Source: Promethearchaeota archaeon (lineage in GTDB: Archaea > Asgardarchaeota > Lokiarchaeia > Sigyniarchaeales > SOKP01). Taken from it: 64,000 nucleotides of DNA. The translations under genes and the position numbers were made by a program. The notes beneath the pieces are model-generated. The model saw only the letters and a list, made by a program, of their open reading frames with translations. It made no database searches and was not told the origin of the DNA. Positions 5,947 through 26,635 of the stretch are shown piece after piece; within the stretch, counting starts at the first letter, position 1, and each line of letters starts with the position of its first letter. The stretch covers positions 86,719 to 150,718 of the forward strand of contig JAEOSU010000076.1 of assembly GCA_016840165.1 (NCBI GenBank), in the 5' to 3' direction.

Positions 5947-6189
5947 TTGGTAATGGAAATTGATATTAATGAAAAGAACAATGATAAGGCTTCTAGTGGG
6001 TCAGATAATAATATAATCAGTGTTAGAGTTATTATTAGTTGTCCTACTGGCGATTATAAAAAAAAGTTTAGAAATCAATTTCCCCGAGATCAAATGGACC
6101 TCTTTTTGGTTTCTGCTCGAGTTTTTGATTGGATGACATGTCCTCTTTGTGGAGAACTTTTGAATTGTAATTTTGAGTTTAATATCTAA
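5947..6189 (+). CDS. hypothetical small protein
   Basis: ORF only; one CPLCG knuckle. The ATG at 5953 is the more likely start. Confidence 0.3.
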   Translation: MVMEIDINEKNNDKASSGSDNNIISVRVIISCPTGDYKKKFRNQFPRDQMDLFLVSARVFDWMTCPLCGELLNCNFEFNI

Positions 6190-6232
6190 TCTTGTTTTAA
6201 TAAAGATAATAGTATCACATTTAGAGTAGATT

Positions 6233-7549
6233 TTAAATGTCTAAATCAAGTTTGATGGACCCATACTTTCCCCCTCCGCCAGGAGTATAAATAATCTGGT
6301 CATTTCTCATAGCTTCTATTATTTCACCAATTTTTTTGTCATAGTTGTTAATTTTGTTTAAGGACAAATCAATTAAAATTTCATATTCGGGTCCTAATTG
6401 AGAGATCATCTTTTCATAAGCATTTAAAACGGTCTTACTAGTACTGCTTTTAACATTTTTAACTGAGCGAATAATATCGATTAATGGAATCGCATTGATA
6501 TAAGGAGGACGGTGATTGGGATGTTGAGCTTTATTATATGAAGAAATCGTTTCGATTCTTTCATATACTCCCAACTTAATTTTAAAGTTCTTACTAGTTT
6601 TTTCCTTACAAGCAGGGCATATCATTTTTCCTTTAGCAACGGTATTGATAAACTCTTTTCGCGCACGCTCTAAATCTTTAGAATAGTATTCAACGAATTG
6701 AGGAGTGATACGGTACTTATTAAAAATTGAGGTGGTAGATTCATTGATTTTTTTAAAAATTATTCGTCGTCGACATTTATAGCAAAACATATTGTAATAT
6801 TTACCTAGTTTTGGATGTAAACCTACATTAAGAATAATTCTTCGAGAATCTTTTCTTCGCAGAGCGGATTCAATTTCCTCGAATGAAGGATTATCAATTT
6901 CAATCCTATTAAATTCTCTTCCCAAAGAACGTGGTGATTGCGAATGAGCATCACTGTTACTGAGAAATGATACGTCTTTTAGACATTCTAAACGATCTGC
7001 TAAATCTGTGTTAGCAGAAAGTCCTAGTTCAATAAATGAGACTTTTTTTAATGCATGATGGTAGCAGTCCTCTAAATTACTATATTGATTTTGACGAAAT
7101 ATTGCTTTGAAAGGAGTAAATGCATGTGCTGGACCAATGATACCCCCTATATCTGTAATTTCATCCACTAACTCAGCAGGAGCTAAATTTACTCTTGGTC
7201 TCCCTCCCCATTCATTAAATAAATTTTTTGAATGATTCCTTAGCTTTTTTTGTGCCTTAATTACGCTTTGAAAGTCGGGAAGGAGAACTACATGATGGAT
7301 ATTTTCCATATCTTCTATTTCAGTTTGTAAAATGAAAAAAATATCATCATATTGATAGGCACCTTCAGGAGTTTTTTGAAGGTTATGTTGCATATATTTT
7401 AACCACTCGGGTTGTAATATATCTCCGGTTCCTAATATCTGGAGGCCTTTCTGTTTGCATGTAGCAACCATAGTATCCAAATTCAGAGATTGCGACACTG
7501 CGATTGAATGAGGACTATGGATATGAAGATCTGCGTTAAAAATTTGCAT
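6233..7549 (-). CDS. endoQ: endonuclease Q (PHP-domain deaminated-base endonuclease)
   Basis: N-terminal ADLHIHSPHS PHP motif, GPAHAFTP, LSNSDAHS..LGREFN, central CxxC..CPAC zinc finger, C-terminal PGGGGKYG. This is collinear with Pyrococcus EndoQ as I recall it. Confidence 0.82.
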   Translation of the reverse strand: MQIFNADLHIHSPHSIAVSQSLNLDTMVATCKQKGLQILGTGDILQPEWLKYMQHNLQKTPEGAYQYDDIFFILQTEIEDMENIHHVVLLPDFQSVIKAQKKLRNHSKNLFNEWGGRPRVNLAPAELVDEITDIGGIIGPAHAFTPFKAIFRQNQYSNLEDCYHHALKKVSFIELGLSANTDLADRLECLKDVSFLSNSDAHSQSPRSLGREFNRIEIDNPSFEEIESALRRKDSRRIILNVGLHPKLGKYYNMFCYKCRRRIIFKKINESTTSIFNKYRITPQFVEYYSKDLERARKEFINTVAKGKMICPACKEKTSKNFKIKLGVYERIETISSYNKAQHPNHRPPYINAIPLIDIIRSVKNVKSSTSKTVLNAYEKMISQLGPEYEILIDLSLNKINNYDKKIGEIIEAMRNDQIIYTPGGGGKYGSIKLDLDI

Positions 7550-13727: not shown

Positions 13728-14960
13728 GTGATAGGATTGGAGAAAAATTCAGATTTTTTTGGTAAAGAACTGTCAGTGGAGGAACGAGACTTATATGACC
13801 GCCAATTTCGCCTTGAAGGTTGGTCACAAAAGGTAGTAAAAAATTCGAGAGTCCTAATAGCAGGTGTAGGAGGTTTAGGTTGTGAAACTGCTAAAAATTT
13901 AGCTATGTTAGGTGTGGGTCATATCGATCTTGTTGATTTAGATATAATTGAACATTCTAATTTAAACCGACAAATACTTTTTACTGGTGCTCAAATAGGA
14001 GAATCCAAAGCGATTGTAGCTGCTAGAAAATTGAGGGAAGTAAATCCAAATATAACTATAAAAGGGTATTCTACCTCTTTAGAACGATTAAATCCTGAAA
14101 TTTATCAAGCCGTTGATATTGTGGTTGGTGGTCTTGATTCGATGATTGCTCGTTTAAACTTAAATGCGCAGTGTATAAGATTTAGAAAACCTTTAGTTGA
14201 TGGGGGCGTATCTGGTTATCATGGGCATATCTATACCGTGTTTCCTTATAAAAATGCCTGCTATGAGTGTAACCCATTACCTATTGGCGAAAGTGATGAA
14301 ATGGCAGCTTGTACTGTAGTTGGAATTCCCCGGAAAAGAATTCACTGTGTTTTTAAAGGGGATATGGCTTTTAGAGAAAAATTTGATAGAGATCCAAATC
14401 CAAAAGATATGAATGATATAAAATATATTCAAAAAGCGGCAAATGAATTAGTAAATAAACATAATTTCTTACCCGAATACACTGAAGATGATATTGTAAA
14501 AATTATTGATAGACATGATCCAGGATTAATTACAGTTAATGCCGTTATTTCTGCTTTACAGTCTCATGAGACTATAAAGATTATTCATTGGAAAAAAGGG
14601 CATAAAGGATTAGGAGCGCCCATACAGGATTATGTTATCTTTAATGGTATTACCATGAAATTATATCATATTGAAAAAAAAAGAAACCCAGAATGTTCTC
14701 AATGTGGAAGAAATGCTCGACGTGTTATTATAAAAATGAAAGCACAGTCACCTTGCATGAATATTATAAAAATTTTAAATCATCATGGGTATAACTTAGA
14801 GGAAAATTTTGAACCCATTATTACACTATTGGATTTCAATGATATACAAGTTATTGATTTAGAAAAGAATGCTAGAGAAAATGATTTACGTAATTTAGAA
14901 TTTTTAATTGTAGCTGGGTTTGTTGGTGGAGAAATTTATGTAACACTAAAATTAAAATGA
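13728..14960 (+). CDS. ubiquitin-activating E1-like enzyme (ThiF/UBA family)
   Basis: GVGGLGCE nucleotide loop and NLNRQ. Two CxxC pairs (CYEC, CSQC). MAACTVVGIPRKRIHC resembles the eukaryotic UBA3-type catalytic-Cys segment (Cys codon 14310-14312). C-terminal ~70 aa is a possible ubiquitin-fold domain. The TTG at 13737 after AAGGTGAT may be the true start. Confidence 0.9.
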   Translation: MIGLEKNSDFFGKELSVEERDLYDRQFRLEGWSQKVVKNSRVLIAGVGGLGCETAKNLAMLGVGHIDLVDLDIIEHSNLNRQILFTGAQIGESKAIVAARKLREVNPNITIKGYSTSLERLNPEIYQAVDIVVGGLDSMIARLNLNAQCIRFRKPLVDGGVSGYHGHIYTVFPYKNACYECNPLPIGESDEMAACTVVGIPRKRIHCVFKGDMAFREKFDRDPNPKDMNDIKYIQKAANELVNKHNFLPEYTEDDIVKIIDRHDPGLITVNAVISALQSHETIKIIHWKKGHKGLGAPIQDYVIFNGITMKLYHIEKKRNPECSQCGRNARRVIIKMKAQSPCMNIIKILNHHGYNLEENFEPIITLLDFNDIQVIDLEKNARENDLRNLEFLIVAGFVGGEIYVTLKLK

Positions 14961-15046
14961 ATTTATGATCAAAATAAATATTTATAATAATTGTCTTATC
15001 AAAAACTATAAGAATTGAAAATTAAAAAAAAAGGGGTTGAAAAAAA

Positions 15047-15574
15047 TTGAGTTTAAGAAGTAGTCGTATTTCTCGAGATTTTGCGGGTTTAAAAAAGATG
15101 CTTAAGAATGGAACCATGGTTCAATTAAAACCATTTAATCCAAAAAAAAAAAGTATTGATCATTTAGCTATTACTATCAGAGGTCCCAAAGGAACAGCTT
15201 ATGCAGGGGGTCTTTTTAAATTAGAAATGAAATTCCCTGCTCAATATCCTAAGCAGCCTCCATTTGTGAGACTCCATACACCAATTTGGCATCCAAATTT
15301 TTGGCCTAAACCAAGTGAATATAAAGGACAAAGAAATATCTGTTTAGCATTAGTTGATCCTTCTTTAGTTGGTAAAAAAGGAGGTTGGAGTCCTTCGAAA
15401 ACAGCAGTCACTATAGTGCAAGCAATAATTGCTATGTTAAATACACGCGGAAAATATGTTAATCCAACAGATGTATTTAATAAAAAAGCAGCAATCGAAA
15501 TGATAAAGGATCAAAAATTCTTCGAGAAAAAAGTTAAAAACCTAGTAAAGAAGTATGCAAAAGAAAAGTGGTGA
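15047..15574 (+). CDS. ubiquitin-conjugating E2 (UBC fold)
   Basis: HPNF...QRNICLAL gives an HPN motif and catalytic Cys (codon 15341-15343). The N-terminal helix SRISRDFAGLKKML is UBC-like. Confidence 0.87.
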   Translation: MSLRSSRISRDFAGLKKMLKNGTMVQLKPFNPKKKSIDHLAITIRGPKGTAYAGGLFKLEMKFPAQYPKQPPFVRLHTPIWHPNFWPKPSEYKGQRNICLALVDPSLVGKKGGWSPSKTAVTIVQAIIAMLNTRGKYVNPTDVFNKKAAIEMIKDQKFFEKKVKNLVKKYAKEKW

Positions 15575-16388
15575 AAATAATATGAAAAATGATGAAATTC
15601 CTGATGATCCAATTAGAGAAGCCATTAAACAAAAAATAAAAAACAAAATCAAAAAAGAATTACTTAAAGAAATATATTCGGAATTACAATTAGAAGAAGA
15701 AATTACAAACGAGATAACCACTGAAATAATTAGTGATCCTTTATTAGAGCATTCCGAGATCAATAAAGCTAATCTTGAACCGATTCCTTCAGAGATCGTA
15801 GAAACTTCTGCTAGTAATGGTAAATTTAAAGCACCTATAGCTATAAATGTAAAATCCATTCTAAAAATTGCCAGTCACGCATTAAAATATGCTCATTCAA
15901 AAATCCCAAGAGAAGAATGGGTTGAGGTTATTGGCTTACTTGCTGGAACATTTGATAAAATTCATAACGTTTTATATATTGAAGATGTTTATCCAATGGG
16001 ACATGGTAATGCTGTGTATGCGGAAATTAAAGATTATAAAAATTATGTAAGAGCTTTTAAAGATATCAAAAAAAGTAGATTGTTTATATGTGGCTGGTAT
16101 CACTCTCATCCATCCTATGGATGCTTTATGTCTAGAGAAGATTTAGGTACCCAATCGCGGTATCAAACATTATGGGATAAAGCAATAGCACTTGTAATTG
16201 ATCCTTATCAGATAAATGGAAAATCATTGGGTTTTGAAATTTATCGTGCGAATTTTAAAAAACGAGAGTGGTTTTCTGTACCTTTTGAGATTAATGGAAA
16301 TTTAGATGTGGGAATGTTACCTGAAATTTTGGATTTTATGAACCCAATTATAGAGGGGAAGGCTGCTTATTTAGAATATGATGAATAA
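15555..16388 (+). CDS. JAB1/MPN/Mov34 (JAMM) metalloisopeptidase, Rpn11-like, with ~95-aa N-terminal extension
   Basis: EVIGLLAG plus GWYHSHPSYGCFMSREDL give E...HxHx7Sx2D. An alternative start is the ATG at 15582, 8 nt after the E2 stop, with GGTGA as SD. Confidence 0.9.
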   Translation: MQKKSGENNMKNDEIPDDPIREAIKQKIKNKIKKELLKEIYSELQLEEEITNEITTEIISDPLLEHSEINKANLEPIPSEIVETSASNGKFKAPIAINVKSILKIASHALKYAHSKIPREEWVEVIGLLAGTFDKIHNVLYIEDVYPMGHGNAVYAEIKDYKNYVRAFKDIKKSRLFICGWYHSHPSYGCFMSREDLGTQSRYQTLWDKAIALVIDPYQINGKSLGFEIYRANFKKREWFSVPFEINGNLDVGMLPEILDFMNPIIEGKAAYLEYDE

Positions 16389-16408
16389 AATCAAAGGTTG
16401 ATTAATCT

Positions 16409-17548
16409 ATGGTAAAAAAGAAAAATTTGATAATCCTTCTTTTTGTCTTAATTGGTTTTGTCCATGGGTTGATCTCAATTTCATTAAATATTTTTCTAAC
16501 TTGGGTATTTATCGGTTTGTGGATATTTTTCATAATAAAAATTTTCGAAAACATAAAACAACATCGCGAATTTAATTCACCTTATAATACGGCATTTTTT
16601 GTTATTCTTCCTTTATTTATTGGGATCTTTTATTCTATGTGGGGCTACTATACGAATTTATTTGGTGAAAATCTCTTTATGAACTCCAATATCTATTTTA
16701 GTTTATGGAGCTTAATTTTTGGATTTCCATTTGTTTTATATGGATCTTATTCATTATATCGTTGCTTTAAAAAGTATAATGTGATCTATTTTGGGAGAAG
16801 AGCTGTAAAGGCTAAAGTGGTTGGATATCTACTATCATTCTCAATAATTTTTGGTATTATTCTTTATTGGATAATTTTTTACTCTATTATTGAGTTTTTT
16901 AATTATTTATTAATTCCTTTACATTTCTCTTTAGATTTAAATCTTTTAATCATTTTTATATTGACTATTCTAATTCTTATTTTATTTGGATTTTTAAATC
17001 CTCAAAGACGATTATCTCCTTTAACTCGAGAATATATAGCACAGCGTACTCGAAGAATTAATGCTCTCACAAGACCTAGTATTCAAAATCAGAGAGTAAA
17101 GACAACTAACCGATCAACTTCTCCCTCAACTAGAACAGTGACCCGATCAACTACTACTTCCTATAGATCCTCAAGGATCACTCCAAAATCTAAAAGCCAT
17201 GCGAGGAGAACAACAAGAACCACTGAAACTAAAAAGACAAAAACTAATCTAAAAATTCGAAATATAAATGCTTATAAGCCAAAAGCGGCATTTCTGACAG
17301 AAGAAGATTTCAAATGCATTTTCTGTTTTAATTTGCCAAAATTTCCCGAAGATAAAGGTAGAGGGATCATTTTATGCCCTAATTGTAGATATCCTTCCCA
17401 CGCAGATGAGTTTAAAGACTGGTTAAAAACTTCAAATTTATGTTCACGTTGTAGCGCACCCATTCCCTCTAGCTTTAGAAGAAATCCAAGAATTATTAGT
17501 ATAAAAAATTATATTTCTATCTATAAACAAATTTTAAAAAAAACATAA
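16409..17548 (+). CDS. polytopic membrane protein with S/T/R-rich linker and C-terminal RING-like zinc finger (candidate E3)
   Basis: About six hydrophobic helices in the first 200 aa. The linker is RSTSPSTRTVTRSTTTSYRSSR... The C-terminus is CIFC-x16-CPNC-x4-H-x13-CSRC. Confidence 0.7.
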   Translation: MVKKKNLIILLFVLIGFVHGLISISLNIFLTWVFIGLWIFFIIKIFENIKQHREFNSPYNTAFFVILPLFIGIFYSMWGYYTNLFGENLFMNSNIYFSLWSLIFGFPFVLYGSYSLYRCFKKYNVIYFGRRAVKAKVVGYLLSFSIIFGIILYWIIFYSIIEFFNYLLIPLHFSLDLNLLIIFILTILILILFGFLNPQRRLSPLTREYIAQRTRRINALTRPSIQNQRVKTTNRSTSPSTRTVTRSTTTSYRSSRITPKSKSHARRTTRTTETKKTKTNLKIRNINAYKPKAAFLTEEDFKCIFCFNLPKFPEDKGRGIILCPNCRYPSHADEFKDWLKTSNLCSRCSAPIPSSFRRNPRIISIKNYISIYKQILKKT

Positions 17549-17580: not shown

Positions 17581-18540
17581 TTATTTATTTGTTCCAATAA
17601 TTCTTCTTAATTCTCCAACCGTAGTTTTTAATTCTGAATATACATTATGGGGATGGATGGATTCATAACTTTCAATAGTGAATTTAATTTTAGACTGATC
17701 CTCCAAATTTGGAAAATCACTCAGGATGAATCTTTTTGCCATTTGTCTGACTACATCCTCAGAAAAAAGTGGATTTAGATGAGCTGTTCGAACTAGCCTT
17801 GCCTCTTCTGGTCTTTTTAGAACTGACTGCATTTTTCCCGACATTGAACCTTCTATGATATCAATTATATCTAAAACATCAATTTTATGATTGTTTAAAT
17901 CTTTAATCTGCACAATAATAGTTCCTTTTGATCGCTGATTATGAGAACTAAAAGGTAAGATATTGAGGAGTTTCTTAATATCTTCTTCCCGCAGATTGAT
18001 ATCTCTTCTATTTTTAATAATTTCTTCAGCATACTCTTGGCTCATTTCTTTTGCACAAGGGCAAACCGTCATACCAACGGCACTTGCCCCAATATAGTAG
18101 TTAAAATCAATCTCTCCTGATTCATCCTTACGGGCTTTTACAAAAGAACTTATATCATATGACTTTTGGATATTTCTTTGTTGTTCATCTTTAGTTTGAA
18201 CGACTATTTTGCCTTCAAGTTTTACATAGACTTTTCTGGTATAAGGATGCTTTTTGAGAAGTTCTCGTGCAATTCTATCTCCTACCACTTCTACAGATGG
18301 TGTTGGTTTGAAAATTACCTCATTTATGATCTCTTCGATAGTTTCAGAGGTGCGAGACATATGAATCCCTCGTTGTTTGGCAGGAAGAGATATCAGTGCA
18401 GAGATCTTAGGATAAAAGGAGTAGCGCTTATTTTCTTGAATGATCTCGACTTTTTTTTCGACACCAACAATCCCAACTTTATCGATAGGAATATCGATTT
18501 TTGAGCCAGAATTCTGTAAATCTTTTTTAAAGTGGCTAAT
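17581..18540 (-). CDS. mptA: GTP cyclohydrolase MptA / FolE2 family; N-terminus extended beyond the ORF-track ATG
   Basis: VCPCAKEMS motif. The in-frame upstream 60 codons encode DLQ...IDKVGIVGV...RGIHMSR, conserved FolE2/MptA N-terminal blocks. There is no ATG/GTG/TTG back to the stop at 18547-18549. ATT lies at 18538-18540. Confidence 0.78.
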   Translation of the reverse strand: MSHFKKDLQNSGSKIDIPIDKVGIVGVEKKVEIIQENKRYSFYPKISALISLPAKQRGIHMSRTSETIEEIINEVIFKPTPSVEVVGDRIARELLKKHPYTRKVYVKLEGKIVVQTKDEQQRNIQKSYDISSFVKARKDESGEIDFNYYIGASAVGMTVCPCAKEMSQEYAEEIIKNRRDINLREEDIKKLLNILPFSSHNQRSKGTIIVQIKDLNNHKIDVLDIIDIIEGSMSGKMQSVLKRPEEARLVRTAHLNPLFSEDVVRQMAKRFILSDFPNLEDQSKIKFTIESYESIHPHNVYSELKTTVGELRRIIGTNK

Positions 18541-18678
18541 TAAGTATCACTAACTTAAAATTATTTATCTATCTAATAAAAGTAGATATCTAATATAAAA
18601 AATATTAATGACCAAGTTTGTTCTACTAAAATTTATAATTTAATTTATATCATTACTATGCTTATCTAATTTAAAAAA

Positions 18679-19848
18679 ATGCCTGAAAAATATCTCTATT
18701 GTAAATTTGGGTTAATAGGAGAGAATTTAGAATTAAAACAAAATATAAATTTGTCATTTGACAAAGAAGGAAAAATAACTGAGTTAAAATTTGATGAGAT
18801 CGAAGCAGACATTAATTTTGATAGAACACGAGAAAATTATGTTATGATTCCAGGATTGATAAATTCTCATATTCATATTGGAGATAGCTTTGCTAAAGAG
18901 AGAGGTCATAATAAAAGATTAATTGAAGTTGTAAGTCCTCCCAATGGCATTAAGCATCTATTGTTGCGGGAAACTTCCGACACCAAAAAAATTAAAGGAA
19001 TTAAATATGCTATACATGAGATGATATCGAATGGAATAACCTATTTTATAGACTTTAGAGAAAATGGAATTAAGGGGATTGAACTTTTACAAAGAGCACT
19101 AAAAGATGAGAGTATTAAATGTTTGATATTCGGCCGTTTTGATCAAATAGATGATCTACAGGAAGTATTTTACAAATCAGATGGAATTGGATTATCAAGT
19201 TATCATCACCTAACCGATGATGTAAAGTTAGAGCTTAGAAGAATGAAATCCCGTCTGTTTAAAAAGATAGCTTGTCATGTTGCTGAACTCAATCATGAAC
19301 CTCTCCTTTTAAATGAAATATTAGAGGATGCTTTAGTCGATATAATTGTACACGGAACACAATTAAAAATTCCCGATCTAAGAAAAATTCAAGAAAAAAA
19401 AATTAAAGTTGTGCTATGTCCGAGGAGTAATGGATATTTTGGACTCGGATATCCTCCAATTAAAGAGATGTTGGAGTTAAGTATTCCTTTTTCATTAGGA
19501 ACTGATAATGTTATGGTTAATAATTTAAACTTATTTGAGGAAATGCGTTATTTATATTATACTGCAAGAAATCAAATAAACGAAGAGGATTTGGGCTATT
19601 TTAATGCTAAAAATATTTTTAAAATGGTTACTATTAATGCAGCTAAAAACTTCGACATTGAATCAGAAGTAGGGTCAATATCCTTAGGTAAAGCAGCTGA
19701 TTTAGTTATGATTGATTTAAATAATCCAAATTTTTACGTTAATAAATTAGATAAAGCTGAGTTCTTTTCATTACTTCTTCATAGGACTAATGTAAGGAAT
19801 ATCAACCAAGTATATATTGGAGGAAAGCTAATTTATGAAAGCGACTGA
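18679..19848 (+). CDS. amidohydrolase-superfamily deaminase-like protein
   Basis: INSHIHIGDS (HxH), CHVAE (HxxE), VHGT and GTDN metal/catalytic motifs, typical of the cytosine/guanine/MTA deaminase branch. Confidence 0.82.
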   Translation: MPEKYLYCKFGLIGENLELKQNINLSFDKEGKITELKFDEIEADINFDRTRENYVMIPGLINSHIHIGDSFAKERGHNKRLIEVVSPPNGIKHLLLRETSDTKKIKGIKYAIHEMISNGITYFIDFRENGIKGIELLQRALKDESIKCLIFGRFDQIDDLQEVFYKSDGIGLSSYHHLTDDVKLELRRMKSRLFKKIACHVAELNHEPLLLNEILEDALVDIIVHGTQLKIPDLRKIQEKKIKVVLCPRSNGYFGLGYPPIKEMLELSIPFSLGTDNVMVNNLNLFEEMRYLYYTARNQINEEDLGYFNAKNIFKMVTINAAKNFDIESEVGSISLGKAADLVMIDLNNPNFYVNKLDKAEFFSLLLHRTNVRNINQVYIGGKLIYESD

Positions 19849-20503
19849 TAAACCATATATCATTTTAAGTGCCGCTATGACCATCGATGGTAAAATAGCT
19901 TCTAAAGAAGGAGACACTGACATATCAGATGATAAAGATTGGAGGGAAGTCCATAAACTCAGAACTAAAGTAGATGCAATAATGGTTGGGAAAAATACAA
20001 TATTGGCTGATAATCCAAAACTCCATATTAAATTTTATTCCCATTCTGGTTATTATCGTATCGTAGTAGATAGTAATTTAGTAACGCCAATAGACTCTAA
20101 TGTTATTACATATCAACTAGACTTATATCCTACTATTATTTGTACTACTGAAAATGTACCTATTGATAAAATTAGGGAATATGAAGCAAAAAATGTTAAA
20201 ATTATTACTTCTGGTCGAAAGGAGCACGTTGATATAAATGCTTTATTACTAAAATTACATCAAATGGGTATTAAGTCAATTCTATTAGAGGGGGGAGGAA
20301 ATTTAAATTGGAGTTTTATAAAAGAAAACTTAGTGGATGAAATTCGATTGACAATCGCTCCTTGGATTATTGGAGGGCAAAATGCGATTAGTTTGGTTGA
20401 GGGAGATGGCTTCTCGCAAATGAAGAATGCACCTCGGTATCATCTATCTAAAGTTAAAACAAGAAATAATTATGTAAAATTGAAATTTTTGAAATTGACA
20501 TGA
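19835..20503 (+). CDS. arfC: 2,5-diamino-6-ribosylamino-4(3H)-pyrimidinone 5'-phosphate reductase (RibD C-terminal domain type)
   Basis: ILSAAMTIDGKIA, VGKNTILADNP, LLEGGGNLNWSF. Overlaps the upstream gene by 14 nt and the downstream gene by 4 nt. Confidence 0.85.
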   Translation: MKATDKPYIILSAAMTIDGKIASKEGDTDISDDKDWREVHKLRTKVDAIMVGKNTILADNPKLHIKFYSHSGYYRIVVDSNLVTPIDSNVITYQLDLYPTIICTTENVPIDKIREYEAKNVKIITSGRKEHVDINALLLKLHQMGIKSILLEGGGNLNWSFIKENLVDEIRLTIAPWIIGGQNAISLVEGDGFSQMKNAPRYHLSKVKTRNNYVKLKFLKLT

Positions 20504-21603
20504 GAAAATCGACATTACCTATAGAAAAACTCAAATCAATATCATTACGCAAGATACAAAAAAAAGTAAGTGAGATTACGAGTGAGTTTAATAAAGAACA
20601 TGATAAAGTTATAACTTATTCAAGGAATTTTACAATTTCATTGTCTAATTACTGTCTAAATCATTGCAGTTATTGTTTTTACAATCATCGGGTGCCTAAA
20701 GATCAAGATAATAGAAATACCATATTACTTTCTAATTCTAAATTAGACTCATTAATTGATAGTGCAAAAAAATTTGATTGTAAAGAAGCACTAATTTTAT
20801 CTGGGGAAGTACCAGACAGTTTTCAAATTGTAAGAGATGAACTTAAAGCCAGAGGTTTTGCGTCATTTTTCCGATATTTGGTCACTTTATGCAATAAACT
20901 TTTGGATATGAACTTCTTACCTCATACTAATGTGGGGTTAATCTCTTTTGATTATATGAAAGAATTGAAGAATATTAATGCATCAATGGGATTAATGTTA
21001 GAGAGTACGTGCGAAAGATTATCAATGAAAGGAGGAGTTCATGAATTTTCTCCTGGAAAGATGCCGGAAAAAAGAATTAGGTTTATTGAAAATGCGGGAA
21101 AACTTAAAATTCCGTTCACGACTGGTCTATTATTAGGGATCGGAGAGGATGAAACAAATAGGATTGAGGATTTATTTTTAATATACGAACTACATAAAAA
21201 GTATGGTCATATACAAGAAATTATCTTACAAAATTTCATAGAGAAGCAGAATATTCAATATCATCCCATTAGGCCTATACCCATAGAAGAAATACTCAGA
21301 ATAATTGGTATTGCTAAAATAATTATGGGAAATGAAATTGAAATCCAGGTTCCCCCAAATCTTTTAATGGGTTATGAAAAAGAAGCAATAACAATGGGGA
21401 TTACTGATTTTGGAGGTATATCGCCAATAACATTAGATTATATCAATCCAACTCATCCATGGCCCCAAATCGACTATTTAACAAAAATTTGTAAAAAAGA
21501 AGGGTATGAATTGAAAGAAAGATTACCTATTTATGAGAAATTTATTAGAAAAGAAGGATTCTGTTCAAAAAAAATTAAAGCTGTAATTAATAAAATAATG
21601 TAG
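20500..21603 (+). CDS. cofG: FO synthase subunit 1 (7,8-didemethyl-8-hydroxy-5-deazariboflavin synthase), radical SAM
   Basis: ITYSRNFTISLSNYCLNHCSYCFY is a CofG-type CxxxCxxC context. Confidence 0.82.
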   Translation: MRKSTLPIEKLKSISLRKIQKKVSEITSEFNKEHDKVITYSRNFTISLSNYCLNHCSYCFYNHRVPKDQDNRNTILLSNSKLDSLIDSAKKFDCKEALILSGEVPDSFQIVRDELKARGFASFFRYLVTLCNKLLDMNFLPHTNVGLISFDYMKELKNINASMGLMLESTCERLSMKGGVHEFSPGKMPEKRIRFIENAGKLKIPFTTGLLLGIGEDETNRIEDLFLIYELHKKYGHIQEIILQNFIEKQNIQYHPIRPIPIEEILRIIGIAKIIMGNEIEIQVPPNLLMGYEKEAITMGITDFGGISPITLDYINPTHPWPQIDYLTKICKKEGYELKERLPIYEKFIRKEGFCSKKIKAVINKIM

Positions 21604-21609
21604 AGACAT

Positions 21610-22734
21610 ATGGCAGCAGCATATAACCATATTGATAAAAAAGTAAAGAAAATTCTCAAGAAAGCTGAAAATTCTGAGGAGATAACCAAAGATGAGGCTT
21701 TGGAATTATTAAAAGTAACCGGAAATGAATTTTTTGCTCTACAAAATACTGCGAATAACCTTTGTTTTCAGAAAAAAAATAATGTGGTAACCTTTGTTAT
21801 AAATCGTAATATTAATTTTACAAACATTTGTTATCAGGGATGCCGTTTTTGTTCCTTTAGCGTTCCTAATAAAGAAAAAGATGCTTTTCTTTTAAGCATT
21901 GAAGAGATTCATGATAAAACTGTGCAAGCATATCATTCAGGATGTACTGAAATATGCATTCAAGGGGGTATAAATCCAGATTTAAATTTTGAATACTATT
22001 TAGATATCTTAAGTATTGTTAAAGAAGTTAATAGGAATCTCCATATTCATGCCTTTTCTCCCCAGGAAATTTTCTACATGGCGAAATTGCATGGTACTAG
22101 CATTGAAGAAACTTTAAAGGAACTTAAGAAAGCTGGATTAGATTCAGTTCCTGGAACTGCAGCAGAAATTCTTGTTGATAAAGTAAGAAAGATTATTTGT
22201 CCAAAGAAAATATCAACCGCACAATGGATTAATATTATAAAGACAGCCCATAATCTGGACATTCCAACCACTTCAACGATAATGTATGGCCATATTGAGG
22301 ATCTTATAGATCGTGTAGAGCATTTACACATTTTAAGAGAAATTCAAAAACAAACTTCTGGGTTCACTGAATTTGTACCACTTCCTTTTGTAAACGAAAA
22401 TCCCATATTATCTAAATTACCTAACTTTCCCTTAAGACTACATTATGGTATGGGAGATCTAAAGTTATTTTGTGTTGCAAGGCTATTTTTTAATAATTAT
22501 ATAGACAATATTCAATGTTCGTGGGTAAAATTAGGTCCTAAGATGGCTCAGGTTTCGTTAAACTATGGTGTAAATGATTTCTCCGGCACACTGATGGAAG
22601 AAAATATATCAAAGTCAGCGGGAGCAGATTATGGAGAGTATTTATCACCTCAAGAAATAACATCTATAATAAAAACAGCAGGAAAAAAACCTGCTCAAAG
22701 AGATACTTTGTATAAAATTTTAAAATTTTATTAA
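21610..22734 (+). CDS. cofH: FO synthase subunit 2, radical SAM
   Basis: VTFVINRNINFTNICYQGCRFCSF. Adjacent to cofG. Confidence 0.82.
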   Translation: MAAAYNHIDKKVKKILKKAENSEEITKDEALELLKVTGNEFFALQNTANNLCFQKKNNVVTFVINRNINFTNICYQGCRFCSFSVPNKEKDAFLLSIEEIHDKTVQAYHSGCTEICIQGGINPDLNFEYYLDILSIVKEVNRNLHIHAFSPQEIFYMAKLHGTSIEETLKELKKAGLDSVPGTAAEILVDKVRKIICPKKISTAQWINIIKTAHNLDIPTTSTIMYGHIEDLIDRVEHLHILREIQKQTSGFTEFVPLPFVNENPILSKLPNFPLRLHYGMGDLKLFCVARLFFNNYIDNIQCSWVKLGPKMAQVSLNYGVNDFSGTLMEENISKSAGADYGEYLSPQEITSIIKTAGKKPAQRDTLYKILKFY

Positions 22735-22747
22735 TTTAGAATTCTAA

Positions 22748-24625
22748 TCATTTCCTTGCTTGCTCTTGAAGCAGATTTAGAATGAAATGTTGGGTAATTA
22801 AGTCAGAACTTATTTTTCCAAGAACGATTCCCTCTTTAACTACAGGCATTGCTGAAATTTTATATTGCTCAAGTTCTCTGACTATTTCTAGCAAACTCAA
22901 GTCGGGAGATGCTGTAATTACATCCTTCGTCATAATATTTTCAAGATTAGTAGCACTAATTCCTTCAGCAATAGCTTTCGTTATATCCCAATCTGTTAAT
23001 ACTCCAACGAGTTTCTGATTTGAAAGAACTGCAACTATTCCACTATTTTCATTTATCATTAATTCAGCAACTTGTTGCATACTACTTTGAACATCAATAA
23101 CTGGAATAGTAATCATTATATCTTTTGCTGTTCTCAGACTTTCCTTTCGAGAAAGGCGTTGAAGGCTTATCTGTTCAGCCGCAGCAGATGGTAACAGGTC
23201 CTGATTTGAGGTTAAAATTTCGACTAACTCATTCATGTTATGTTGAATCACATTTTCTCTATATTCTCCTCCAGCTTCTAATCGTTCCATCGAGAGTTTA
23301 GCAAATTCCTTAGCATGATCCTTTAACCATATCTCAACCTTATCTGGATGTCCTAATAAGTTGTTTGGGATTTGAAGATTATCTGGTGTTTTTATTATAT
23401 GTTCTTGTGCTGCAAAAATTACTCCTCCAGAATTAACGAGATAATCATTCGCAATCATAATTCCTTTTCCTCGATAAACCACTTGCTCCATAACTGTTCT
23501 TGCCGCTTTCCTATTGGGATCAGGAGAGTAGGTATTCGCTCCTTCCACTATTAATGACCAATTTCCAATACGATCGACCGTCATTGAAGGATTATCAATG
23601 TTACTTACCCCCAAATAGTTAAATATTGGTGCTGCAGGAACTAAACAAAAAGCATTTTCACGAAGTAGGTTATTAGGATTATTTGAATATTTGATTGGAT
23701 GTTTGTGGCCTTTAGATATAATTTTACTCTTAAAATAATTAAGTGATACTCTCTTCTCTTCTACCCATATATCAAATAGTTCTTTAACTGGTAATCCATC
23801 CTCATCATAAAGATAGCCCTCTAAATCGCTTATTCCAATTACTTTCGCCTTTGGAAGACGCTCGGAAAGTATTCTAGCTGCATGGGCTCCCACAGCTCCA
23901 AAGCCTTGAATAATCAAGCTCACTTCTTCTGGTTCTGGAACTTCCAATGTAGAAAATTGGGAAAGCACAGTTAGACGTGGCATTATTTTTAATAAAGTTT
24001 GCAAAGCAATTACGACTCCTCCAGCCGCAGCACCAAGCTCATCAATTCTATTTCCTCCCATATCTGCAGTTTTAGATACAGCACTATCAATTCCATTTTC
24101 AATTGCAATAGTTTTCATATCCATATCATTTGTACCTACATCTGGACCGGGTACATATACATTTTTATATCTATTAATTAATCTTGCAAAATGGCGTACA
24201 ATCTCGGTGTGTTGATCTGGAGGTATATCTCGTTCTGCTATAATTCCAGACTTACCTCCTCCATAAGGAAGATTGGCTGCTGCATTCTTTAAAGTCATTC
24301 CTCTTGCTAGGTTGTATATATCTGAAGGTACTAAATCTGGAAGCATTCTAATTCCTCCCATACTAGGTTTGCCCATTGATAAATTATCAACGACTAAATA
24401 TCCACCTACTTCTAGTTCGGAGTTTTTATCCCATATACAGGCTACAAGCTGTGGCCCTAATTTATCACTTATAATCCCAATGCTAGACAGTAAGTTTTCA
24501 TCAGTTTTAGTAAATTCTAAATAACACAGACCATTTTCTTCGAAAAGACGGTTTTTAAGGATATTTTTGGGTAGATGTTCTTTTAGAAAACTTTCCATAT
24601 TTTTAGGAATCATTTTTACCACCAA
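22748..24625 (-). CDS. Glu/Leu/Phe/Val-family amino acid dehydrogenase fused to a C-terminal CBS pair
   Basis: GGIRM and KNAAANLPYGGGKSGI (catalytic Lys region), GFGAVG Rossmann loop. The C-terminal ~125 aa hold two CBS motifs (ITIPVIDV...GVLTDWDI; MTKDVITA...GKISSDLI). Confidence 0.88.
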   Translation of the reverse strand: MVVKMIPKNMESFLKEHLPKNILKNRLFEENGLCYLEFTKTDENLLSSIGIISDKLGPQLVACIWDKNSELEVGGYLVVDNLSMGKPSMGGIRMLPDLVPSDIYNLARGMTLKNAAANLPYGGGKSGIIAERDIPPDQHTEIVRHFARLINRYKNVYVPGPDVGTNDMDMKTIAIENGIDSAVSKTADMGGNRIDELGAAAGGVVIALQTLLKIMPRLTVLSQFSTLEVPEPEEVSLIIQGFGAVGAHAARILSERLPKAKVIGISDLEGYLYDEDGLPVKELFDIWVEEKRVSLNYFKSKIISKGHKHPIKYSNNPNNLLRENAFCLVPAAPIFNYLGVSNIDNPSMTVDRIGNWSLIVEGANTYSPDPNRKAARTVMEQVVYRGKGIMIANDYLVNSGGVIFAAQEHIIKTPDNLQIPNNLLGHPDKVEIWLKDHAKEFAKLSMERLEAGGEYRENVIQHNMNELVEILTSNQDLLPSAAAEQISLQRLSRKESLRTAKDIMITIPVIDVQSSMQQVAELMINENSGIVAVLSNQKLVGVLTDWDITKAIAEGISATNLENIMTKDVITASPDLSLLEIVRELEQYKISAMPVVKEGIVLGKISSDLITQHFILNLLQEQARK

Positions 24626-24733: not shown

Positions 24734-26635
24734 GTGATTATGGTTAATGATGAGAAGAAACTTCTTGTAATTGGTATCGATCAAGCTATTCCCTATCTTC
24801 TTAATAAATTCCTAAAAGAGGGATTACTTCCTAATATCGAAAATTTGGTGAATAATGGGGTCATTGGAGAAGGCTATTCTTGTCCTCCTTGCGATACTCC
24901 TACAAATTGGACAACGATAGCTACAGGAGCCACGACAGCGGTTCATGGAGTGACAAGCTTTTATATGCATCTTCCTGGTGAGCCTCTTGATTTAGGAATG
25001 AAATATCGATCAAGAACACAACTATATAAAAATTGTAAAGCACAATATTTATGGAATGTAGCGGATAGCAATGGATATAAGCCTTTTGTTTTGAATTACC
25101 CTTCTGGTTGGCCAAATGTATTTAAAAATGGAGTAATGAGCTTATTTACTTGGAATATTCCTGAATCCTTACCCAAAATGTTGATTTCAACTGAAATCTA
25201 TAAGATCGTATCAAACACACAGTCTTATTTAAAAAATGGTGAGATCTCAGAATATATTTTTGAAAATATCCAGAGTCTTACCCAAAATCTAAAAATGTCA
25301 ATTGAAAGTCAAAATGCTTCTTGGAAGAATTTCAAAATTGAGTTGAATAAGAGTAAGAACCAAATGTATGATTCGATTAAAATTAGTGGAATTGATTCTG
25401 GAAAATTTGAGATTGTTAAAGAAAATGAATGGAGCCAATGGTTAAAGTTAAATGTCAATTCAGAGTTCGGTGTTTTACCGTGTCTTTTTAGAATAAGACC
25501 GTTGAAGGTAGAAGAAAATGGCAAATATATTAAATTAGAACGTTCTGGAATCTATAATACAAAAGGATGGTCAGTACCCGAATCATTTGGGGAAAAAATC
25601 GTGAAGAATGTGTTTGAATATGACCTACCGAAGAAAAGGGATGTCGAATTTATGATTTATGGAAAAATGAAAAATTTTCTAAAGTCAGCTAGAAATGAAA
25701 GTTTATCCTTAGTTCAAGCACTTTATTTTGCCAAAAGAGATTTTAACTGGAATTTTTGCTTCTTTCACTATCATCCATTAGATACTATTAATCATGACCT
25801 TCTGGCGTTATTACATAAAAACTCAACTGTATATAGTGAAGCGAAAGCAAGCAAGGCACTCAAAAATGTGGAAACCGCATATAAAATCGTCGATGAGATG
25901 GTGGGGGAATTGATGAAAAGATGTGTAGATGAAGATACAATTACTTTATTTATTTCTGATCATGGTGCAATTCCTATTTGGAAAGTAGTTAATATCACTA
26001 AAATCTTAACTGAAGCGGGATTAATTACTTATAAATTTATTCATTCTCAGAAAAAGTATATTATAGATTGGAATAAAACAATGGTATTTCCTTATATGGA
26101 GCCTCCCTTTATCTGGGTTAATTTAGAAGGGAGAGATTCTTCAGGAATTGTTAAGCAAGAAGAATTTGAGAATGTGAGAGACCAAATTATTGAAGTCCTT
26201 TCAAACGTAAAAGAACAAAAAACAAATGTAAAGCTGATAGATAAAGTATTAAAAAAGGAGGACGCGTCAGATTTTGGTTTGAATGGTGAAAGAGTGGGAG
26301 ATATTGTTTATTTCTTAAATCCTCCTTATGGTGTATTTGATGGCGATTTAGATGCCTTAGATGCATCTTCTTTATCTCCAAGTGCATATAATAAACCCAT
26401 AACTTACAATTCCAAAAGATTTTTTGGAGCGCATGCATACTATACTCCGGACACGATTTTTGGAAATTTTTCTGTAAGCGTACCTTTAATAATTAGTGGA
26501 AAGGGAATCGCAAGAGGAGTGTCTCTAAATAAAATTATAAAATTAACAGATATAGCTCCCACCTTATCACATTTACTTAATATTCCAAAACCTCAGCAGG
26601 CACAAGGTAGTATTATTTACGATATCTTAGAATGA
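24734..26635 (+). CDS. alkaline-phosphatase superfamily protein (nucleotide pyrophosphatase/phosphodiesterase-like)
   Basis: VIGIDQA, PPCDTPTNWTTIATG (Thr nucleophile context), ISDHG. Confidence 0.72.
   Translation: MIMVNDEKKLLVIGIDQAIPYLLNKFLKEGLLPNIENLVNNGVIGEGYSCPPCDTPTNWTTIATGATTAVHGVTSFYMHLPGEPLDLGMKYRSRTQLYKNCKAQYLWNVADSNGYKPFVLNYPSGWPNVFKNGVMSLFTWNIPESLPKMLISTEIYKIVSNTQSYLKNGEISEYIFENIQSLTQNLKMSIESQNASWKNFKIELNKSKNQMYDSIKISGIDSGKFEIVKENEWSQWLKLNVNSEFGVLPCLFRIRPLKVEENGKYIKLERSGIYNTKGWSVPESFGEKIVKNVFEYDLPKKRDVEFMIYGKMKNFLKSARNESLSLVQALYFAKRDFNWNFCFFHYHPLDTINHDLLALLHKNSTVYSEAKASKALKNVETAYKIVDEMVGELMKRCVDEDTITLFISDHGAIPIWKVVNITKILTEAGLITYKFIHSQKKYIIDWNKTMVFPYMEPPFIWVNLEGRDSSGIVKQEEFENVRDQIIEVLSNVKEQKTNVKLIDKVLKKEDASDFGLNGERVGDIVYFLNPPYGVFDGDLDALDASSLSPSAYNKPITYNSKRFFGAHAYYTPDTIFGNFSVSVPLIISGKGIARGVSLNKIIKLTDIAPTLSHLLNIPKPQQAQGSIIYDILE

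Follow-up and report, generated by a model that had tools for sequence, protein, structure and literature searches.

The window, a 64,000-nucleotide stretch of a Promethearchaeota archaeon contig (JAEOSU010000076.1, positions 86,719 to 150,718), is AT-rich (GC ~31%) and contains four closely spaced genes on the forward strand: an amidohydrolase gene (AH), the pyrimidine reductase gene arfC and the FO synthase genes cofG and cofH (Table 1). AH probably encodes the pyrimidine deaminase of archaeal riboflavin and FO/F420 precursor synthesis. Its 3' end overlaps the beginning of arfC by 14 nt, which we read as translational coupling, a Shine-Dalgarno (SD)-like motif precedes the arfC start, and arfC overlaps cofG by 4 nt. 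The coordinates of the open reading frames (ORFs) reproduce both the gene order and the two overlaps of an earlier prediction made for this locus (hereafter the original prediction). The reductase matches Pfam RibD_C (3.1e-47) and exceeds the cutoff of NCBIfam TIGR01508 'rib_reduct_arch' (197.4 bits versus 186.45), and CofG and CofH are both above the cutoffs of their own NCBIfam equivalogs. Proteins of the window match best to metagenome-assembled genomes of Promethearchaeota, Lokiarchaeota, and Thorarchaeota, which agrees with an Asgard source. Neither further rib genes nor the zinc motif of the cytidine deaminase (CDA) fold ([HC]AE...PCxxC) occur within the 64 kb. A search for RNA-seq runs covering the AH locus found none, the locus being contained only in DNA metagenomes.

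Table 1. Features of the AH locus and of its surroundings; conservation refers to an alignment of 152 family sequences.
Feature	Position in window	Strand	Remarks
Amidohydrolase (AH)	18679..19848	+	389 aa; predicted 2,5-diamino-6-ribitylamino-4(3H)-pyrimidinone 5'-phosphate deaminase; HVO_2483/MJ0699 'PyrD' candidate orthologue
HxH (H64-I65-H66)	18868..18876	+	strand-1 metal ligands; H64, H66 100%
HxxE (C199-H200-V-A-E203)	19273..19287	+	strand-5 metal ligand and catalytic Glu; H200 100%, E203 99%
H225	19351..19353	+	strand-6 catalytic His; 100%
D276 in G-T-D-N	19504..19506	+	strand-8 metal ligand; D276, N277 100%
SD-like GGAGG	19819-19823	+	11 nt 5' of arfC ATG
AH stop/arfC start overlap	19835..19848	+	14 nt, ATGAAAGCGACTGA
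arfC	19835..20503	+	222 aa; archaeal 2,5-diamino-6-ribosylamino-4(3H)-pyrimidinone 5'-phosphate reductase; TIGR01508
cofG	20500..21603	+	FO synthase subunit; NF004884 387 bits versus cutoff 209
cofH	21610..22734	+	FO synthase subunit, consumer of 5-amino-6-ribitylaminouracil; NF005609 473 bits versus cutoff 426
mptA/folE2-type GTP cyclohydrolase	17581..18531	-	divergent from AH; TIGR00294 223 bits versus cutoff 220
Glu/Leu/Phe/Val-type dehydrogenase with two C-terminal CBS domains	22748-24625	-	625 aa
Type I phosphodiesterase/nucleotide pyrophosphatase family protein	24734-26635	+	633 aa
E1-like ThiF	13728-14960	+	ubiquitin-type cluster
E2 UQ_con	15047-15574	+	ubiquitin-type cluster
JAB/MPN protease	15555-16388	+	ubiquitin-type cluster
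Multi-pass membrane protein	16409-17548	+	ubiquitin-type cluster; 379 aa, Cys-rich C-terminal tail, without Pfam match

AH matches Pfam Amidohydro_1 (8.3e-39) and carries the set HxH, HxxE, H and D, which is 99-100% conserved in the alignment of 152 relatives and invariant in a second one of 70 sequences, bearing out the motifs (HxH, CHVAE, H, D) named in the original prediction. HxxE is a deaminase hallmark within the amidohydrolase superfamily. Both alignments also contain invariant residues that are specific to the AH family, i.e. D69, K92, D125-F-R127-E128, R153, C247-P-R249-x-N251, N277, and E288. Several of them are basic, which may serve the binding of a phosphorylated substrate. Of the NCBIfam models, the 'chlorohydrolase' PRK07213 (NF005552) scores best; it aligns end to end (residues 12-379 versus model positions 10-376 of 382) with 246.7 bits at a curated cutoff of 294; a syntenic Nitrosopumilus orthologue passes this model with 333.2 bits. 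The functionally named COG0402 models align mainly with the C-terminal half of AH and all stay far below their cutoffs, e.g. 5'-deoxyadenosine deaminase DadD (PRK07228, 99.4 bits versus 522), guanine deaminase (TIGR02967, 80.3 versus 375), aminofutalosine deaminase (PRK08418, 77.7 versus 320), 8-oxoguanine deaminase (66 versus 532), and MtaD (PRK15493, 53.7 versus 779). Pfam gave no match of AH to dCMP_cyt_deam (PF00383), and the fold is a TIM barrel. The AlphaFold2 model, built from 70 family sequences, reached a pLDDT of 95.2 and a pTM of 0.94, and its top 50 Foldseek matches were mostly COG0402-type deaminases and dehalogenases (best E 1.5e-24), with query-normalised TM-scores of 0.75-0.86 to COG0402 structures at a sequence identity of 14-22%. 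A family-profile search of the PDB had 3lnp, 4v1x, 4dyk/4gbd, 4f0r, and Tm0936 as best matches. Solved structures included no close relative, the best phmmer match being AtzA (1e-16, partial). Judging from the model, we confidently place AH in the COG0402 (ATZ/TRZ-type) deaminase clade, with a predicted (beta/alpha)8 barrel and an N/C-terminal beta-sandwich.

Gene context was followed in regions of ~13 kb around 160 AH loci from alignment-based scans of GTDB representative genomes and 80 haloarchaeal loci from a single-protein scan; a single-protein scan of genome contigs gave no match, and an alignment was required as query. In 30 of the 32 close Asgard relatives arfC lies directly 3' of AH, with cofG within 3 kb in all 32 and cofH in 28, and the tblastn match of ArfC starts at the same point, 14 nt inside the AH ORF, in 25. 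The single locus of Helarchaeota has cofH-cofG on the opposite strand followed by AH-arfC, while that of Bathyarchaeia reads arfA-AH-arfC. All 20 loci of Nitrososphaerota contain rib genes and arfC within 3 kb (arfA in 19, arfC directly 3' in 19) in the order ribE-ribB-ribH-arfA-AH-arfC, and none has cofG or cofH nearby. The AH neighbours in the Nitrosopumilus locus L074 are, by NCBIfam, riboflavin synthase, DHBP synthase, lumazine synthase, and GTP cyclohydrolase IIa/III. In an unrelated uncultured archaeon (L058) the order is AH-ribB-DMRL_synthase. Among non-halophilic Halobacteriota (Methanosarcinales and relatives) arfC was found within 3 kb in 29 of 71 loci, arranged as AH-usp-CBS-arfC in Methanosarcina and with arfC divergent from AH-usp-CBS in Methanothrix. 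GTP cyclohydrolase II (RibA) was not detected near AH in any locus or in the window, with an approximate query sequence. AH thus accompanies arfC/rib genes, with or without FO synthase genes close by, in four or more phylum-level lineages, and its repeated pairing with arfC in Asgard, Helarchaeota, Bathyarchaeia, and Nitrososphaerota is not due to chance. The coupling with cofGH is Asgard-specific and is not the main evidence, since Thaumarchaeota keep AH-arfC without cofGH. The synteny with arfC, proposed as a check in the original prediction, was therefore upheld across several phyla, with the cofGH linkage limited to Asgard.

Two Asgard metagenome-assembled genomes (MAGs) deviate in their AH region. 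In L044 (6001-7160) the AH match is broken over two frames (6001-6723 and 6720-7160), by a frameshift or an assembly error, and in L011 (7170-8722) an insertion of ~1.5 kb separates AH from arfC. A gene for a universal stress protein (Usp) is linked to AH in Methanosarcinales, Methanobacteriaceae, and haloarchaea (e.g. L130 7121-8519; L103, L121, L035, L241), and a four-CBS-domain protein gene is also linked to it outside haloarchaea. Usp occurs within 3 kb of AH in 66 of 90 haloarchaeal loci, and both Usp and CBS do so in 19 of 21 Methanobacteriaceae loci.

An exhaustive representative search further revealed a natural fusion of the two proteins. This 636-aa protein (P0174; GAB4316839.1) from the Asgard MAG GCA_054681365.1 (contig BAAHGB010000015.1, not in the GTDB representatives) contains Amidohydro_1 at residues 56-382 and RibD_C at residues 415-625. 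Its ORF is uninterrupted (L253 6001-7911) and is followed by cofG and cofH. Its reductase half is most closely related to RibD proteins of the bacterial type (40-49% identity). An origin by assembly frameshift remains conceivable, but a simple frameshift at the overlap is disfavoured because the linker comprises ~25 aa. The conserved 14-nt overlap together with this one natural fusion hints at a less probable reading, in which AH would form an obligate complex with ArfC and channel the labile intermediate to lumazine synthase and FO synthase.

The idea of an amidohydrolase at this step is not new. Archaea apparently lack orthologues of the CDA-type RibD deaminase domain (Rodionova et al. 2017, PMC5397151). 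The same paper credits a candidate 'PyrD' to Osterman, Overbeek and Rodionov (2010), who derived it from gene clustering and co-occurrence, and describes it as still untested. Its SEED role is 'Pyrimidine deaminase archaeal predicted', EC 3.5.4.26. The formamide hydrolase step of Methanocaldococcus jannaschii is assigned to ArfB, an archaea-specific enzyme (PMC5397151). In Haloferax volcanii, HVO_2483 is listed as deaminase candidate, 34% identical to MJ0699 and still requiring confirmation by experiment (Pfeiffer & Dyall-Smith 2021, PMC8305020), while HVO_1235 is the proposed haloarchaeal ArfB candidate and cofD and asd are HVO_2479 and HVO_2487 (PMC8305020). A 2026 review of riboflavin biosynthesis names no archaeal deaminase.

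A member of the AH family is universal in haloarchaea (~337 aa). In Haloferax gibbonsii the gene order is cofD, a small ORF, a 200-aa ORF, two HD-domain genes, AH, usp, biotin ligase, biotin carboxylase, and asd, so that AH (P0281) lies downstream of cofD and four genes before asd. The cofD-asd interval holds eight genes for seven locus tags, so H. volcanii must either lack one of them or have it unnumbered, and counting from cofD would give HVO_2484. By flanking-gene count back from asd, rather than by the locus tag itself, the haloarchaeal AH orthologue is very probably HVO_2483; this is favoured because the only alternative gene encodes an HD-domain protein, implausible as a 'deaminase candidate'. 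The window AH is 29% identical to the Haloferax protein over 333 aa (E 9e-47), with the family motifs in common. The deaminase hypothesis is thus ~15 years old, and the window AH adds an Asgard member to a family for which the function had been predicted, a confirmation more than a surprise. The statement in the original prediction that the archaeal deaminase had not been assigned holds as regards experiments, but the same family had been proposed in 2010 and again in 2017 and 2021.

From gene structure, motifs, fold, and genomic linkage we infer that AH would act as a (beta/alpha)8 amidohydrolase with a mononuclear metal centre, within the COG0402 deaminase clade. AH can be tied to the reductase step because of the synteny in Asgard, Nitrososphaerota, and Bathyarchaeia and the fusion with RibD_C. 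Its substrate would be the ArfC product, 2,5-diamino-6-ribitylamino-4(3H)-pyrimidinone 5'-phosphate, and hydrolysis of the 2-amino group would release 5-amino-6-ribitylamino-2,4(1H,3H)-pyrimidinedione 5'-phosphate and ammonia. Once dephosphorylated, the product would serve both lumazine synthase and the FO synthase (CofH/CofG) whose genes directly follow. On the model of guanine deaminase and Tm0936-type enzymes, H64, H66, H200, and D276 are predicted to hold the metal and a water molecule and E203 and H225 to transfer protons, with the hydroxide attacking C2 of the guanine-like 2-amino-4-oxopyrimidine ring. The family-specific invariant residues listed above (D69 to E288) might bind the ribityl phosphate and the 5-amino group. 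Synteny, fusion, deaminase signature, and COG0402-like fold all support the central idea of the original prediction, namely that an amidohydrolase-fold enzyme stands in for the CDA-fold RibD deaminase.

Several points weigh against a pyrimidine deaminase. AH itself fails the curated PRK07213 cutoff, the fusion is a singleton, with no second independent one in the top 120 matches, and the AH orthologues of Methanobacteriaceae (21 loci) and haloarchaea (90 loci) are without rib gene context. Our search of the accessible literature found no biochemical or genetic test of any family member. Moreover, synteny and the ArfC fusion fit a deformylation before ArfC equally well as a step after it. AH could then be a formamide hydrolase of the ArfB kind that turns the ArfA product (2-amino-5-formylamino-6-ribosylamino-pyrimidinone 5'-phosphate) into the ArfC substrate, or a bifunctional deformylase/deaminase, in the many archaea without the creatininase-family ArfB of the M. 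jannaschii type, the true deaminase then being another protein. The arfA-AH-arfC order of Nitrososphaerota and Bathyarchaeia indeed equals the pathway order ArfA, ArfB, ArfC, and haloarchaeal ArfB is itself a gap with HVO_1235 as the only candidate. We nevertheless regard such a role as unlikely and favour the deaminase step because all sequence and structure relatives belong to COG0402 and expel NH3 or Cl- from an sp2 ring or amidine carbon, without a formamidase among them, and because deamination of a 2-amino-4-oxopyrimidine is guanine deaminase chemistry. The HxxE motif likewise speaks for a deaminase. Further, M. jannaschii possesses a characterised, unrelated ArfB (presumably locus tag MJ0116) for formamide hydrolysis yet keeps the AH homologue MJ0699, and the authors who treated both gaps assigned the AH family to the deaminase and HVO_1235 to ArfB.

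The clustering might also reflect general GTP-derived cofactor metabolism, with AH being a guanine, pterin or other nucleobase deaminase. The divergent mptA gene beside AH in 26 of the 32 close Asgard loci would fit this, as would the annotation of haloarchaeal members as 'nucleoside deaminase' or 'cytosine deaminase' and the presence of guanine, 8-oxoguanine, and isocytosine deaminases with the same C2-amino chemistry among the structural relatives. However, the linkage with mptA is confined to Asgard whereas that with arfC/rib genes crosses phyla, and AH stays far below the guanine deaminase cutoff. Guanine deaminases typically have Gln three positions past HxH, where the AH family has the invariant D69. 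This explanation therefore appears quite improbable. A 5'-deoxyadenosine/methylthioadenosine (MTA)/S-adenosylhomocysteine (SAH) deaminase (DadD/MtaD-like) or an aminofutalosine-type one, clearing inhibitory 5'-deoxyadenosine from CofG/CofH, would suit the two radical-SAM genes adjoining AH in Asgard (with cofG directly after AH in L033), the MTA/SAH and adenosine-type deaminases among the closest solved structures, and the homology of CofH to MqnE/MqnC, whose pathway has an amidohydrolase-fold deaminase, but such a clean-up role is highly improbable and was rejected on synteny and model scores, as AH sits with arfC/rib and without radical-SAM genes nearby in 20/20 Nitrososphaerota loci, the Bathyarchaeia locus, and L058, the DadD, MtaD, and aminofutalosine deaminase scores are far under their cutoffs, the family has DFRE where the best-aligned solved relative 3lnp has ADMYF, and the fusion partner is the reductase, not CofG/CofH.

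The mptA neighbour seems to possess an unusual start. Its listed ORF ends at 18360, while conserved coding sequence reaches ~18531, and family profiles begin at model position 57-58 on the listed ORF. The extension of ~57 codons (window 18361-18545, reverse strand) has codon-periodic conservation across Asgard loci and contains no ATG, GTG or TTG. One site in it corresponds to ATG in three loci and to AAA, AAG, ACA, ACT or ATA in 10/13. Five codons 5' of this site lies a conserved ATT (11/13) or ATC (2/13), with SD-like GGTGA/AGTGA 6-7 nt before it and, in L008, a stop codon immediately 5'. From these alignments, AUU/AUC is the probable start codon of mptA. A TTGAA-N4-TTCAA palindrome considered as mptA/AH operator was rejected, being located inside the unannotated mptA coding sequence, and none of the five published consensus types of RbkR-type operators was enriched over shuffles in the mptA/AH intergenic regions that were compared from 23 Asgard loci.

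Downstream of cofH, the window contains a convergent dehydrogenase-CBS fusion gene, a position kept in most close Asgard loci, and, two genes from cofH, a phosphodiesterase/nucleotide pyrophosphatase family gene. The AH-arfC-cofG-cofH operon itself is without the phosphatase required between deaminase and FO synthase. On the other side of mptA lies a eukaryote-like ubiquitin system gene cluster (13728-17548, forward strand), whose membrane protein could be a candidate membrane E3.

Few steps of the archaeal riboflavin/F420 pathway still lack an experimentally identified enzyme, and pyrimidine deamination is among them. If our reading is true, a TIM-barrel amidohydrolase would do domain-wide in archaea what a CDA-fold zinc deaminase does in bacteria, plants, and fungi, a clear case of non-homologous isofunctional replacement that takes in the Asgard lineage, the one closest to eukaryotes. 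Thousands of database entries that now go by 'chlorohydrolase', 'nucleoside deaminase' or 'amidohydrolase family protein' would be corrected as well. To the published prediction, we add synteny counts across phyla, the AH::RibD_C fusion, a family-wide list of invariant residues, the Asgard AH-arfC-cofG-cofH operon with its conserved 14-nt overlap, and a confident structure model.

Among known systems, PyrD (HVO_2483/MJ0699) is the closest, with the same family, the same type of evidence (rib clustering), and the same proposed reaction. Its haloarchaeal members are ~50 aa shorter than the window AH, whose own features are the coupling to arfC and the position before cofGH. PRK07213, the best and full-length model, has a name that is silent on riboflavin. 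The solved COG0402 enzymes, i.e. the MTA/SAH deaminase Tm0936 (1p1m/2plm), Pseudomonas 4gbd, Oleispira 3lnp, guanine deaminase (2uz9/6ohb), isocytosine deaminase (7ww2), and AtzA (4v1x), have the fold and the HxH/HxxE/H/D set of AH, and C2-amino hydrolysis by guanine deaminase is chemically the same as the reaction proposed here. In contrast, AH is shorter (389 aa versus 405-475 aa) and its family is set apart from them by the motifs GDSxAKE, PPxGxKH, DFREGG, and CPRSN. Fungal Rib2 (CDA-fold, PF00383) performs the reaction proposed for AH, and the N-terminal domain of RibD is equivalent. As with AH, the deaminase of RibD is found beside or fused with a RibD_C reductase, whereas fold and catalytic machinery are unrelated. 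The Asgard fusion has the same deaminase-reductase layout as bacterial RibD, with the amidohydrolase substituting for the CDA domain.

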